The notes beneath the pieces are model-generated. The model worked only from the letters and a program-made list of their open reading frames with translations, ran no database searches and had not been told where the DNA came from. From IMG/VR virus record IMGVR_UViG_3300020397_000572, positions 1 to 48,678 of that record: DNA of 48,678 nucleotides; one strand, 5' to 3'. The stretch is from a virus. Its lineage: Duplodnaviria; Caudoviricetes. Positions within the stretch are counted from its first letter, which is position 1. Every line of letters starts with the position of its first letter. The position numbers and the translations under genes were made by a program. Below are positions 75-25,203 of this stretch, piece by piece.

Positions 75-151
75 CTGCCCGTAGCTCAGCTGGACAGAGC
101 AATGGCCTTCTAAGCCATGGGTCGAGGGTTCGAATCCTTCCGGGCAGGCCA
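75..151 (+). tRNA. tRNA-Arg(UCU)
   Basis: Acceptor CTGCCCG/CGGGCAG, anticodon arm ATGGC-CTTCTAA-GCCAT, TTCGAAT T-loop, encoded CCA. Confidence 0.95.
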
Positions 152-153
152 AA

Positions 154-247
154 GGTCCTATAGTTTAACGGTAAAACACCCGATTTATATTCGGCATAGT
201 CTCCAGATTAGAGAGCGATCCTGGTTCGAATCCAGGTGGGACCACCA
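154..247 (+). tRNA. Atypical tRNA with UAU anticodon (Ile-like) and 24-nt variable region
   Basis: Acceptor GGTCCTA/TGGGACC, A73, CCA; anticodon arm CCGA-TTTATAT-TCGG; T arm CCTGG-TTCGAAT-CCAGG; extra hairpin TCTC-CAGATTA-GAGA. Confidence 0.75.
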
Positions 248-5585: not shown

Positions 5586-5614
5586 AGTATAGCATCTGGG
5601 CTCTATTGTGTCAA
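5586..5614 (-). promoter_or_regulatory. Minus-strand sigma70-type promoter with no credible downstream ORF
   Basis: ggTTGACA-17-TATACT. Confidence 0.75.
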
Positions 5615-6188: not shown

Positions 6189-6217
6189 ATAATATGATCA
6201 GAGGTGAGATTTGTCAA
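6189..6217 (-). promoter_or_regulatory. Minus-strand sigma70-type promoter reading into non-coding DNA
   Basis: ggTTGACA-17-TATTAT followed by AATAGTAT, as in the early promoters. Confidence 0.75.
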
Positions 6218-6316: not shown

Positions 6317-6345
6317 ATTATAACATATTTTGGTGAGGTTGTCAA
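6317..6345 (-). promoter_or_regulatory. Minus-strand consensus promoter reading into non-coding DNA
   Basis: ggTTGACA-17-TATAAT, with TG extension. Confidence 0.8.
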
Positions 6346-6408: not shown

Positions 6409-6445
6409 CAAAGTATAATAAAAAACAACGCCAAAGGAGGGCTAC

Positions 6446-6799
6446 ATGGCAGATCGTAAAATCACACTTAATAAAACATTCACCGTTGACCTAGCTGGTG
6501 ACAGCATATGGGACAAGGAGAGAACCATCAACCCCAAGAGTGTTGAGGTCACAGGGATCACCCTAAGAGAGTCAGATTATGGTGATGGAGACGTCTACTG
6601 GGACGCAACGATCACACATGATGGTCCCTGGGAGATCTACACAGACACAGGGTTCACCAAAGGGATCATGGAATTGCTGGGTCCTGGTTGGGAGGGAGAC
6701 TTCTCAGAACAGGGAATGCAACAGGATGGTCTAGCCCATTTTGACATCCATTCTCACCCATATGAGATAAAAAATCCGCTAGAATTGGAGGCAAATTAG
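6446..6799 (+). CDS. Hypothetical protein (IYTDxGF...SEQGMQ family)
   Basis: GGAGGGCTAC RBS; WEIYTDTGF and FSEQGMQ motifs. Confidence 0.8.
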   Translation: MADRKITLNKTFTVDLAGDSIWDKERTINPKSVEVTGITLRESDYGDGDVYWDATITHDGPWEIYTDTGFTKGIMELLGPGWEGDFSEQGMQQDGLAHFDIHSHPYEIKNPLELEAN

Positions 6800-6831: not shown

Positions 6832-6852
6832 AATAGTATGAAAGAGGGCAAA

Positions 6853-7542: not shown

Positions 7543-7577
7543 AATAGTATAATGAAACAACAAACAAGAGAGGGCAA

Positions 7578-8687: not shown

Positions 8688-8716
8688 ATTATAACATATT
8701 TGGACAGCCCTGTCAA
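8688..8716 (-). promoter_or_regulatory. Minus-strand consensus promoter for a probable short RNA
   Basis: ggTTGACA-17-TATAAT; hairpin CCTGGGG...CCCCAGG about 20 nt downstream. Confidence 0.7.
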
Positions 8717-8778: not shown

Positions 8779-8812
8779 AAAACATAATAAAAACTTAAAC
8801 AAAAGAGGGCAA

Positions 8813-9100
8813 ATGCAAATAACAGAAAAACAATTACAACACATGGTGTATTTTTTAACACACAAGGCAAACTATAAAGTTGGTTTGTTTGACGATGACA
8901 TTGATTTTAATGTTAACACTACAAGCGAATTGATTGACAATGCAAAATACTTGATTGACACTTTTTACAAAAAGGGCTTGACTTTTACAGAGGCGATGGA
9001 GTGTGTTACAGATTACAGATATGACGACGATTGCATAAATGAAGGCATACAAGAAATGTGGGACGACTATTGCAAGGAGAACAATATTTTTAAAGACTAG
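8813..9100 (+). CDS. Small acidic early protein (95 aa) on a TC/CC-free sense strand
   Basis: ORF 8672..9100; start at MQITEK after AAAAGAGGGCAA. Confidence 0.8.
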   Translation: MQITEKQLQHMVYFLTHKANYKVGLFDDDIDFNVNTTSELIDNAKYLIDTFYKKGLTFTEAMECVTDYRYDDDCINEGIQEMWDDYCKENNIFKD

Positions 9101-9192: not shown

Positions 9193-9224
9193 AAGAGTAT
9201 AATAAGAAACAGAAAGAGGGCAAA

Positions 9225-9442: not shown

Positions 9443-9473
9443 AATAATATAAACTAAAAAAGCGAGGGCAAAA

Positions 9474-9936: not shown

Positions 9937-9965
9937 TTGACAGTTACAGTAAAAGATCATATACT
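9937..9965 (+). promoter_or_regulatory. Early promoter
   Basis: TTGACA-17-TATACT. Confidence 0.8.
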
Positions 9966-10017
9966 GTATACATAATAAGAAATTAGGCAATAACAACATT
10001 TTAAAAGAGAGGGCTAA

Positions 10018-11022
10018 ATGACACAACAAATCAAAATCAAATCCGGTAGTTACAAGATCAGAGGCAAGGACGTTGAACTTGCTGGCATGGTATTTCCAAT
10101 GGTGGAGCCATTCAAGGTTGGAGCCGCTGGTGGTTACGTAACTGTTGACGGCAAGGCGATTGCTGGATTCCCAGATCGTAACATCAAGATCAAGATTGAC
10201 TCAGCAGATGACTATGAGTTAACAAGAGCAAAAACTACTGTTAGAGAAGAGACAGATGAAGAGACCATCGACCGTCTCAGAGAAAGATTCCAAATCCTAG
10301 AAGACATGACTCGTGCTTGTAAGAAGGGCGACGTCAGGGCAATGATAGTTACAGGCCCTCCAGGAGTTGGCAAGTCGTTTGGTGTCGAGAAGGTTCTTGG
10401 CAAGCATGAGCTGATCGCTGAGCTGGGTGACAGACCTGCGAAGTACCAAGTTGTGAAGGGTGCTATGTCGGCGATTGGTTTATACTGTAAACTGTACAAC
10501 TATGCCGACAAGGATAACGTACTAGTTTTTGATGACTGTGATAGCATTCTTCAAGAAGACCTTTCACTAAACATATTGAAGGCCGCTCTTGACTCTAAGA
10601 AGACAAGACGTATCCATTGGAACACTGATTCATTCAAGCTAAGGAATGAGGGTGTGCCGGACAGTTTCGAGTTCAAGGGTAGTGCGATATTCATTACCAA
10701 CATCAAGTTTGACAACGTTAAGTCAAAGAAGATGAGAGATCATCTAGAAGCAATTGAGTCCAGATGTCACTACATCGATCTCACTATTGATACTGAGAGG
10801 GAGAAGATGCTACGTATCAAGCAGATAGTGAGCGATGGTATGTTGAAGGACTATCAGTTCTCAGAAGAAACAACTGAGAGAGTGATGGACTTCGTGGACA
10901 TCAACAAGAAGAACTTACGTGAACTGAGTTTACGTACAGTACTTAAAATCGCGGACTTGGCCAAAGCATTTCCAAGCAACTGGGAAGCTATGGCAGAGAA
11001 CACAGTACTACGTAGAGCCTAG
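10018..11022 (+). CDS. AAA+ ATPase
   Basis: Walker A GPPGVGKS, Walker B LVFDDCD, sensor FITN, Arg finger ESRC. Confidence 0.9.
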   Translation: MTQQIKIKSGSYKIRGKDVELAGMVFPMVEPFKVGAAGGYVTVDGKAIAGFPDRNIKIKIDSADDYELTRAKTTVREETDEETIDRLRERFQILEDMTRACKKGDVRAMIVTGPPGVGKSFGVEKVLGKHELIAELGDRPAKYQVVKGAMSAIGLYCKLYNYADKDNVLVFDDCDSILQEDLSLNILKAALDSKKTRRIHWNTDSFKLRNEGVPDSFEFKGSAIFITNIKFDNVKSKKMRDHLEAIESRCHYIDLTIDTEREKMLRIKQIVSDGMLKDYQFSEETTERVMDFVDINKKNLRELSLRTVLKIADLAKAFPSNWEAMAENTVLRRA

Positions 11023-11097
11023 CCCTCACTAACTTGCTCCGAGTACTGTTAGCCCCTGGTAGAGTTGTGCCCTCGACTTTATCAGGGGCACTTTTTT
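11002..11097 (+). ncRNA. Candidate 3'-end two-hairpin RNA / terminator with GCCCUC loops
   Basis: Hairpin 1 ACAGTACT..GAGC-loop-GCTC..AGTACTGT; hairpin 2 is a 15-bp stem with GU pairs, loop GTGCCCTC, then T6. Confidence 0.55.
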
Positions 11098-11099
11098 GG

Positions 11100-11128
11100 T
11101 TGACATATCTGGATTTAGACCATATACT
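11100..11128 (+). promoter_or_regulatory. Early promoter
   Basis: TTGACA-17-TATACT. Confidence 0.8.
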
Positions 11129-11161
11129 CAATATATAATTAGAAAACAAAGAGAGGGCTAA

Positions 11162-11509
11162 ATGAACTACAAACTTTACCAAATACACTTAACAGACGCA
11201 GAAGTAGACCAGGTCAATGCAGAAGGCCACAATAGTGTGCCCAAGCAAAAGCTGAAGCTGGATATGAACTTTAACGAGTCACCAGAAGCCATTGCTAAAG
11301 AAGGTATGGACAAGGGTTACTTCACACACGTTTCAAACATATACACAGAGCAGGGCCTAGAGGGTGTGTTCGAAGTAGGGAACATAGGCCCTGAAGCTAA
11401 CATAGAGAGGTTGGCTCCTATGTACTCTGTGAGTGTAGGGGACGTTGTAGAGACTCCAGAGGGTGTGCGTCACGTTGTAGCGAGTATGGGATTCAAGCAA
11501 CTCGCATAG
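11162..11509 (+). CDS. YodL-like domain protein
   Basis: YKLYQI start; LEGVFEVGN and YSVSVGDVV motifs. Confidence 0.65.
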   Translation: MNYKLYQIHLTDAEVDQVNAEGHNSVPKQKLKLDMNFNESPEAIAKEGMDKGYFTHVSNIYTEQGLEGVFEVGNIGPEANIERLAPMYSVSVGDVVETPEGVRHVVASMGFKQLA

Positions 11510-11558: not shown

Positions 11559-11664
11559 GACCGAATGGTCGAGGGGCACGGGGCGTTATAACACAAACTC
11601 TACAAGCTACTAGCAAGTGAGCAGGGGTAAAATCACCACCCAGAAATGAAAAGTACTTCACCTT

Positions 11665-11707
11665 AATTTTTTGTAATCTAATTTTTTTGGATTAAAGACC
11701 CTTTTCG
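11665..11707. repeat. 43-bp T-tract repeat, copy 1
   Basis: 33/43 ungapped identity to 12163-12205. Confidence 0.7.
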
Positions 11708-14851: not shown

Positions 14852-15283
14852 CTATTGTGCGTCAGCTAGTAGTTTGGGAAGGATCTTCTTGGATTTGCCC
14901 AGCACACGGGTCTTGGCCACTGCATCAGCATTTGATACATCGCCACCCACCACGACAAGTGCAATCATGCCCATGCCTTTGTGCGGAGTGCATTGATACA
15001 AGTAAATGCCCGGCACTTCAAAAGTGAATGAGTATTCCTTGTTCATCTTGGATTTCTTGGGCTTGTCAAAGCCATCTGGACCAGCAATGAATTCAACATT
15101 GTGTCCTTTGCTTGTAGGCAACCATGTGATGGTGTCACCCACATCAATCTTGGCAACGTCGACGCTGTAAACCATTTTAGCACCATCGTCACGTTTGTTC
15201 AGCATATCAATAGTCATATCAGCCGCTGACACTGATCCTGATGTGGCAAACAACACAGCCACAGCAATTAAAAAATGTTTCAT
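14852..15283 (-). CDS. Pseudoazurin (blue copper protein)
   Basis: Signal peptide; copper ligands GHNV and YQCTPHKGMGM. Confidence 0.92.
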   Translation of the reverse strand: MKHFLIAVAVLFATSGSVSAADMTIDMLNKRDDGAKMVYSVDVAKIDVGDTITWLPTSKGHNVEFIAGPDGFDKPKKSKMNKEYSFTFEVPGIYLYQCTPHKGMGMIALVVVGGDVSNADAVAKTRVLGKSKKILPKLLADAQ

Positions 15284-17266: not shown

Positions 17267-17650
17267 ATGGCTTATTCAAAAGAGCTGTTAGATCACTATG
17301 AAAATCCTAGGAACGTTGGTTCGATGGATAAAGAAGACAACTCCGTTGGCACTGGACTAGTTGGTGCACCTGCCTGTGGAGATGTTATGAAACTACAAAT
17401 AAAAGTTAACGAGAAAGGTTGTATACATGACGCCAAGTTCAAGACGTTCGGCTGTGGCTCTGCTATTGCTTCTAGCTCTCTTGTTACTGAGTGGGTTAAA
17501 GGCAAAACATTGGGCGAAGCTGGGAAAATTAAGAATACAGAAATCGCAACAGAGTTGGCTCTTCCACCCGTAAAGATTCATTGTTCTGTTTTGGCAGAAG
17601 ATGCCATTAAGGCCGCTATTGCAGATTACGTTAAAAAGAACACGGTTTGA
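17267..17650 (+). CDS. iscU: Fe-S cluster scaffold protein IscU
   Basis: MAYS..DHYENPRNVG, GAPACGDVM, FGCGSAIASSS, LPPVKIHCSVLAEDAIKAA. Confidence 0.97.
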   Translation: MAYSKELLDHYENPRNVGSMDKEDNSVGTGLVGAPACGDVMKLQIKVNEKGCIHDAKFKTFGCGSAIASSSLVTEWVKGKTLGEAGKIKNTEIATELALPPVKIHCSVLAEDAIKAAIADYVKKNTV

Positions 17651-19424: not shown

Positions 19425-19525
19425 TGGCTCTGGGGGTAGGACTCGAACCTACACGGTAAATATATTGCAGTACATCTACCATACGATTAACAGTCGTACG
19501 TGTCTACCTATTCCACCACCCCAGA
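19425..19525 (-). tRNA. Atypical tRNA(GUU, Asn anticodon) with 11-bp variable arm, 101 nt
   Basis: TCTGGGG/CCCCAGA acceptor, G73, CCA; TACGA-CTGTTAA-TCGTA anticodon arm; GTAGG-TTCGAGT-CCTAC T arm; 29-nt variable region. Confidence 0.85.
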
Positions 19526-24314: not shown

Positions 24315-24610
24315 TACTTACGTTTCTCCTCGATCTTTGTTTCATATTTTGTTTTAAAGTAGTCGTGTGTAACATAAGATGCAGTAATGAATCCTGCTAA
24401 GAATACTAACAAATAAATCACAGTGGTGATTAAATTCTTTTTGAAACCACCCTTGCCTTTGTTCTTTTTGTATGCTCTCCACATCCACCAAAAACCTGCA
24501 ATAGTTAAAATAATACCTATTGCAATTACCCAAGGATTATTTGCGATTGCAACTCCTGAGGCACCAAAGATTAAAAACAATAATCCATTTATATAACACA
24601 TTGGACACAT
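24314..24610 (-). CDS. Three-TM membrane protein
   Basis: MCPMC start; hydrophobic helices. Confidence 0.7.
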   Translation of the reverse strand: MCPMCYINGLLFLIFGASGVAIANNPWVIAIGIILTIAGFWWMWRAYKKNKGKGGFKKNLITTVIYLLVFLAGFITASYVTHDYFKTKYETKIEEKRK

Positions 24611-25203
24611 TACTTACGTTTCTCCTCAATCTTATCTGCAAGACCGTATGCTATTGTTTCTTCAGCACTTAAAAAATAATCACGATCCATGTCTTTCATG
24701 AAGTCGTCATAAGTCTTACCTGCTGTGTTGTGTTTCACGTACAGCTCTGTAAGTTTTTCTTTTAGATACTGTATTTCTTTGTAACGTATTTCAATATCAC
24801 TTGCCATACCTTTTGCTCCACCACTTGGTTGATGGATCATTGTTCTTGCATTAGGTAAAAGTATACGTTTGCCTGGTGCTCCTGCTTGAGCAAGGAATGA
24901 ACCCATACTACAAGCCTGTCCTAGCACTATGGTTCTTATATCACACTTGACATATTGCATTGTATCATAAATGCTCATGCCACTTGTAATTATTCCGCCA
25001 GGACTGTTAATGTAAAAATTAATATCCTTTTCTGGATTCTCACTTTCTAAGAAAAGCATCTGTGCAACAACTATGTTTGCACTATGATCTTCAACAGGAC
25101 CATTCAACATCACAATTCTATCTTTCAATAGACGACTGTAAATGTCATATGCTCTTTCTCCTCTATTGGTAGATTCGACTACCATTGGTATTAAGTTACT
25201 CAT
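24610..25203 (-). CDS. clpP: ATP-dependent Clp protease proteolytic subunit
   Basis: [39 protein letters not shown]. Confidence 0.96.

Follow-up and report, generated by a model that had tools for sequence, protein, structure and literature searches.

A hairpin array at the 3' end of a phage ATPase gene carries loops complementary to a private tag in early ribosome-binding sites and may damp early translation

The window analysed here is the whole 48.7-kb virus record IMGVR_UViG_3300020397_000572 (48,678 nucleotides; Caudoviricetes). Small plus-strand genes preceded by sigma70-type promoters form a block at its start (1-11.5 kb), and beyond about 13.7 kb it consists mostly of minus-strand replication and metabolic genes; given this layout, the block presumably represents the early region, and we refer to it as such. 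Four strong minus-strand sigma70 consensus promoters (6317-6345, 8688-8716, 6189-6217 and 5586-5614, two of them 12/12) face largely non-coding stretches of the block, where further small RNAs are possible. tRNA features at 75-244 (+) and 19428-19525 (-) comprise a tRNA-Arg(TCT), a tRNA with a TAT anticodon and a third Rfam match not called by ARAGORN, and the Rfam glutamine riboswitch (glnA leader) finds a match in this phage at 12700-12757 (+; 52.1 bits). Host-like genes at 14852-15283, 17267-17650 and 24610-25203 encode a copper-binding azurin/plastocyanin protein, a NifU/IscU protein and ClpP. The first-pass annotation drew an analogy with small RNAs of Alphaproteobacteria, but an alphaproteobacterial host is only a possibility; among the matches listed, the best ClpP hits were 59-64% identical and came almost all from Gammaproteobacteria.

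Within the early block lies the gene of a 334-residue AAA+ ATPase (10018-11022, plus strand; PHROG 1250), which is homologous to proteins annotated as nrdC.10 in T4-like phages (PMC1524935) and whose mRNA bears the hairpins described below. A predicted sigma70-type promoter for this transcript, array included, is located at 9937-9965 (+; TTGACA-17-TATACT). The closest cultured relative of the protein is only 46% identical, and a comparison with PDB sequences returned no match. The structure model (pLDDT 91) has an AAA+ fold across residues 83-334 without a specific family, and fold searches with it yielded generic AAA+ proteins, with ties (best Z 12.6, rmsd 3.9, 213 residues aligned). The N-terminal domain of approximately 70 residues is all-beta in the predicted model; residues 1-75 found no match in the Atlas.

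Two adjacent hairpins close the mRNA of this gene. The 5' arm of hairpin 1 (11002-11049, +) is formed by the last seven ATPase codons, and its loop motif UAGCCCUC (11020-11027) opens with the ATPase stop codon UAG, which is weakly paired in the minimum free energy (MFE) structure. Hairpin 2 together with its U6 tract spans 11052-11097 (+), the hairpin proper (11052-11089) being followed by AC and the six uridines (11092-11097). Its 15-bp stem includes three G-U pairs, to which the MFE structure adds one closing G-C pair, and its loop is GUGCCCUC (11067-11074). The 11002-11097 region folds with an MFE of -42.8 kcal/mol (z -6.18), and none of 200 shuffles was equally good. The two-hairpin structure proposed in the first-pass annotation is therefore real, but its layout needed amending: hairpin 1 draws its 5' arm from the coding region, and hairpin 2 doubles as the predicted intrinsic terminator of the ATPase gene. 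Opening the loops costs 1.4 kcal/mol for loop 1 and 2.8 kcal/mol for loop 2, in model energies that ignore loop geometry. The element has no Rfam match at gathering score, and at E<=10 only three sub-threshold lncRNA models appear.

Both loops present GCCCUC, the exact complement of GAGGGC, a word that occurs 16 times in the window against an expected 7.2 +/- 2.4 (0 of 100 shuffles). Ten of the copies stand directly before start codons, at nine of the 11 genes with a recognisable promoter and at the gene starting at 8813; the tag is found at none of 45 minus-strand genes and none of eight other plus-strand starts examined. A fixed rule defined the gene starts for this count, two of which came out a few bases off. 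The ten sites, all of which had been placed correctly in the first-pass annotation, come in two forms, all on the plus strand. GAGGGCA precedes the genes starting at 344 (tag at 335-341), 2210 (2201-2207), 6853 (6844-6850), 7578 (7570-7576), 8813 (8805-8811), 9225 (9216-9222) and 9474 (9464-9470). GAGGGCUA precedes the gene starting at 6446 (6437-6444), the ATPase gene itself (10009-10016) and the gene at 11162-11509 (11153-11160), for which a separate promoter (11100-11128) lies past the terminator. Across the relatives that share the GCCCUC loops (class A), the tag lies 3-7 nt before the ATG in 250 of 273 tagged leaders, so that its GAGG sits at normal Shine-Dalgarno (SD) spacing; 32 of the 273 contain two AGG(G)C words. 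The canonical anti-SD presumably has no partner for the additional GC. A host with an altered anti-SD is unlikely, because the internal genes at 1334 and 1759 use the canonical AAGGAGGU. On the ten tagged leaders, loop-leader duplexes reach model energies of -13 to -15.6 kcal/mol compared to -6 to -13 kcal/mol for the anti-SD, and the opening cost is 0.5-2.1 for nine of the tags and 5.2 for that of gene 6853. In three large records examined, the tags are grouped in one region, e.g., 11 of 13 in record G001 and 19 of 24 in G004.

Conservation of the loops and their co-variation with the tag had been suggested as checks on the initial proposal, and both are borne out. Among the best 80 of 267 viral loci with the ATPase, 60 carry two or more GCCCUY motifs no further than 330 nt from the ATPase stop. 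The remaining 20 are 18 near-identical loci of one clade, L061 with variant loops and L053, in which an insert has displaced the array. The L053 insertion (approximately 650 nt, at 2192-2840) parts the ATPase stop from an array that resumes with a repeat of the ATPase's last codons, and looks like a mobile element with target duplication. Arrays comprise two to five loop motifs whose stems are unrelated, and at least four of five bases are unpaired in 141 of 150 motif cores across 53 distinct regions. The architecture of hairpin 1 recurs in relatives with matched stem changes (the aligner missed this hairpin, and its pairing was read sequence by sequence); in the terminal hairpin, two-sided changes affect seven of 11 consensus pairs around an invariant loop among ten close sequences. 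All five large records (237-358 kb, one rated complete) contain one array each.

A profile search, of which the best 80 matches were kept, reached ATPases of about 50-70% identity. Clustering at 90% identity reduced 160 loci to 89 representatives. Sixteen of these have no visible loop element in the available sequence, several of the loci being incomplete. Several clades possess the ATPase without the element, and in PA5oct and Vibrio phage D479 the next gene follows the ATPase homologue within 45-70 nt. A sister clade among the 16 (L063, L149 and L153) retains AGGGC or UAGGCA words in the ATPase leader that a protein might read. No loop array emerged from a windowed scan of three array-less loci, and the five array-less records searched for displaced arrays are only 10-17% complete. 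Even where genes intervene (11 loci), the element is found at the end of the ATPase operon. Separately, an upstream (U/A)AGGCA word is retained in ATPase leaders, at 9966-10017 in the window and in L062, L078, L149 and L151-L152; it occurs two or three times in those of array-less clades and is a possible protein-binding site.

Three ATPase clades each have their own loop/tag pair. The distant clades pair GGAGCG with UCGCUCC and GGAGCU with UAGCUCC, the matches outside the GCCCUC clade being GGAGCGA with AUUCGCUCCC and AGGAGCUA with UAGCUCCU. Single lineages show matches of their own: AGUGAGAA with UUCUCACU in L202, CUAGGAGA with UCUCCUAG in L174, GAGGGAA with UUCCCUC in L051, and a 10-nt match in L198. 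We quantified this in a swap test, measuring the share of promoter-led ribosome-binding site (RBS) regions with a perfect complement of at least 7 nt in their own or in foreign arrays. Sixty-two of the 89 representatives have a terminator-ended 3' region, and two of those were dropped for an intervening ORF. With classes set after the loops had been seen, the GCCCUC class scored 0.66 with its own arrays versus 0.04-0.07 with foreign ones (34 loci, 356 leaders), the UCGCUCCC class 0.55 versus 0.09-0.24 (12 loci, 85 leaders), the UAGCUCCU class 0.69 versus 0.07-0.11 (7 loci, 17 leaders), and seven other loci 0.43 versus 0.03-0.11. Loop and tag thus change together across clades. Since the three main pairs occupy separate parts of a quick tree (no bootstrap), this co-variation comes down to some two deep changes and a few confined to single lineages, not 60 independent cases. 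Among the 29 representatives outside the test, L193 has a distal UAGCUCCU, L015 has an array that the rule missed, and 11 end the ATPase operon with a GAUUCGCUCCC motif directly ahead of a terminator located 600-930 nt downstream; local folding leaves the motif unpaired in seven of these 11.

A finer division of labour, in which loop 1 serves GAGGGCUA and loop 2 serves GAGGGCA, had also been proposed. It is only partly kept in relatives: loops with U go with GAGGGCA tags (0.83 versus 0.56, for 24 versus four loci that are not independent), but loops starting with A show no association with GAGGGCU tags (0.15 versus 0.16). Tags are preceded mostly by A (133 of 236), and the facing loop base is U in only two of 97 cases. 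The duplex common to loops and tags amounts to only 6-8 bp, which flanking bases do not lengthen.

To assign the strand of the RNA, we counted mismatches in stems aligned without G-U credit. G-U outnumbers A-C in all stems (43 versus 19), in 70 internal hairpins (26 versus 10; P 0.011) and in 39 terminal hairpins (16 versus 2). This count was used instead of whole-region folding energy, which proved uninformative as a strand test, favouring the plus strand in only 32 of 53 cases; the minus strand of the window also folds (z -3.4). Antisense sigma70 promoters were found in none of 54 arrays and internal sense sigma70 promoters in only two. Taken together, the G-U excess and the promoter counts indicate that the RNA most likely constitutes the 3' end of the ATPase mRNA, on the sense strand, in line with the 3' origin first suggested. 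It shares the intrinsic terminator of that mRNA; a 3'-UTR-derived sRNA would be released from it by processing or an internal promoter. Four of 18 RNA records from metatranscriptome runs were examined and consist of assembled contigs only; two of these extend through the array into the following gene and may contain DNA.

Past the terminator, 83 of 109 class A leaders carry the tag, spread over 29 of 34 loci; upstream of it, tags are just as frequent (190 of 247). Tags in this position would require action in trans, as would the gene at 11162-11509, which its own promoter past the terminator makes reachable in no other way. This supports the idea that the RNA acts on many separate messages, an argument that holds for class A only; in class B, just one of 14 downstream leaders is tagged. 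We also considered that pairing might be mainly in cis, with the tail folding back on the RBS of the ATPase and on upstream read-through messages for autoregulation, the other tags being by-products of leader copying. A 3'-UTR motif that pairs with the SD is described for icaR (PMC3868564), and several observations here fit such an arrangement: the element stays with the end of the ATPase operon, the early region has few predicted terminators, the ATPase RBS fits its own array better than foreign arrays in 48 of 55 loci, and in classes B and C it is better matched than other leaders (7.25 versus 6.2 and 8.3 versus 6.5). However, in class A the ATPase RBS is no better matched than other leaders (6.9 versus 6.8 nt), and this, together with the tagged downstream leaders, means that cis pairing alone cannot explain the data. 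In addition, the ATPases of L052 and L020 have no tag while their neighbours do, and up to five loops seems excessive for one site. We therefore consider an essentially cis-acting element unlikely.

The reading we favour, with a probability of about 0.6, is that the stable tail of the ATPase mRNA, or an RNA derived from its 3' end, masks early SD sites and so provides delayed negative feedback, as an RNA counterpart of T4 RegB. The unpaired loops complementary to target RBSs resemble those of anti-SD trans-acting sRNAs. The interpretation in the first-pass annotation is supported in part; the discrete species of about 95 nt and the early-to-middle switch that it envisaged are putative. The 3' end, as part of the whole mRNA or as a stable 3' fragment, would act in trans on tagged RBSs, and loop pairing would damp early translation class-wide. 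The GAGG of the tag would be the working SD, 5-9 nt from the AUG, and the added GC, dispensable for 16S rRNA, would serve as an address. Capped by a terminator, the structured tail could outlive the mRNA body and accumulate, so that feedback would set in with a delay and include its own gene. Loop 1 would be free only while no ribosome terminates on the ATPase stop. The short seed weighs against this reading, as does the array-less sister clade; because of the former, a chaperone such as Hfq, or several loops jointly, may be needed. Repression is the presumed sign of the effect; as precedent, anti-SD loops repress translation in AbcR/NfeR1 (PMC8844928) and RNAIII (PMC2837412).

Pairing could be real without simple occlusion being its output, if tagged messages decayed because the RNA guided or recruited to them a nuclease or another protein (RNase E/III, Hfq or the ATPase that shares its mRNA). 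The short seed would suit such recruitment, as would the persistent linkage of the element to an AAA+ ATPase with a 70-residue all-beta N-terminal domain, and T4 is described as removing early mRNAs by SD cleavage (PMC3014915). However, nothing ties the ATPase to RNA, several clades keep it without the element, and its homologues in PA5oct and D479 are closely followed by another gene, making guided decay a rather improbable outcome. We give still less credence to the opposite sign, in which the RNA would activate tagged messages, either with the loops as a substitute anti-SD that gives phage mRNAs ribosome priority or by protecting them from decay. The loops do resemble an anti-SD with a private extension, and tag and loop co-vary. 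Against this, the tag already holds a canonical SD core at normal spacing, the RNA's own gene is tagged and must be expressed first, we identified no ribosome-binding element, and tagged leaders are mostly open in predicted folds, so that pairing has little to unmask. Finally, it is very improbable that the tag is a protein-binding site (for a CsrA- or RegA-like repressor) and a minus-strand array its CsrB-like sponge displaying GAGGGC loops: the folding of the minus strand, the indecisive whole-region energies, the leaders with two AGG(G)C words and the repeated UAGGCA in ATPase leaders of array-less relatives would agree with this, but CsrB/RsmZ-type sponges carry the target word in sense in loops of the transcribed strand, and here the U-tract, the G-U bias even in internal hairpins and the lack of antisense sigma70 promoters all indicate the plus strand.

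Several known regulators resemble the array that we propose to mask early RBSs, each in part. Cuckoo RNAs of Alphaproteobacteria (RSs0680/CcsR, alpha-r14 and SmelA075/A099; PMC4615179) share adjacent hairpins (two to four in cuckoo), variable stems and a repeated loop motif. The cuckoo loop CCUCCUCCC, however, resembles the universal anti-SD (PMC4615179), whereas the loops here read GCCCUC, UCGCUCCC or UAGCUCCU and match a phage-private, co-varying tag; the array is also phage-encoded, present in single copy and overlaps a stop codon. AbcR1/2 and NfeR1 of rhizobia use two or three anti-SD motifs to pair at the RBS and repress many mRNAs, but are stand-alone host sRNAs with their own promoters, ordinary SD targets and no dedicated target address (PMC8844928). 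In Staphylococcus aureus RNAIII, several C-rich loops on one RNA mask the SDs of functionally related mRNAs in a timed manner; it is much larger, host-encoded and gains specificity from long duplexes extending past the loop (PMC2837412). The element would work like cuckoo, NfeR1 and RNAIII but, because the cuckoo loop motif and all Rfam models fail, is not a member of the cuckoo or AbcR (alpha-r15) families. T4 RegB likewise inactivates early mRNAs class-wide via the SD region, its own message included, as a protein nuclease that cuts GGAG (PMC3014915), whereas the reader proposed here is an RNA and the word private. In P1/P7 c4, phage antisense loops pair near the RBS and are tied to P1/P7 heteroimmunity (PMC12197685). 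Both c4 and icaR address one message or operon each, compared to a regulon of 10-20 separately promoted genes here.

The closest likeness to the tag is found in the SAS motifs of Cluster K mycobacteriophages and Cluster EF Microbacterium phages, over-conserved SD-containing sequences 3-7 nt before the starts of non-structural genes. Some SAS bases cannot be paired by 16S rRNA, and whether RNA or protein is the reader was left open (PMC3203893, PMC7302621). The tag here has the same orientation and spacing (250 of 273 leaders) and is likewise confined, being present at 0 of 45 minus-strand genes. It differs from the 13-nt SAS consensus of Cluster K, an unrelated sequence in temperate siphoviruses (PMC3203893, PMC7302621), in that it reads GAGGGC. 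According to Pope et al., four K1 phages have one reverse SAS. In Adephagia (JF704105, about 58,660-58,715; L225:30662-30714), this lone reverse SAS forms the 10-nt loop in a hairpin on the plus strand between genes (z -5.7; the minus strand also folds, z -3.7), a single hairpin instead of an ATPase-linked array. The region is conserved in 131 phage records, and five sequences show a two-sided change at one of 18 pairs and one-sided changes at six. The right halves of TM4 and Pixie, the parts examined, yielded no anti-SAS hairpin loop. Adephagia, which is cultured in M. smegmatis, offers a testable model for what reads SAS, a question open since 2011.

These parallels raise the possibility that unrelated phages have repeatedly built an RNA address system, consisting of a private SD extension on a class of genes and a co-evolving, self-encoded loop RNA, which here would time early translation shut-off; the same logic would explain the SAS of Cluster K1. 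We regard the odds of this generalisation as even. A literature search covering few subscription journals yielded no account of a phage RNA acting as reader of a private RBS tag; catalogues of structured RNAs may include the motif in their supplements without a name. The means by which lytic phages end early protein synthesis are understood in few cases, among which T4 relies on a protein nuclease. A regulon-wide switch made of RNA alone, with a private address that co-evolves, would, if true, be a new way of early shut-off; the phages concerned are large, aquatic and widespread (records up to 358 kb). The tag/loop pairs (GAGGGC, GGAGCG and GGAGCU), orthogonal by nature, could find use as modular controls of translation.

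The early block ends with another conserved non-coding element at 11560-11670 (+), made up of a G-rich stretch followed by a AATCACCAC...AAGTACT motif. We rejected an anti-sRNA at 11565-11635, which is partly complementary to the array in the window; relatives keep only the separate motif, without an extended match. Of 71 loci whose downstream DNA extends for 2.5 kb or more, 52 have the AATCACCAC...AAGTACT element, 0.6-6.4 kb past the ATPase stop; it is a candidate replication origin or genome-end signal.
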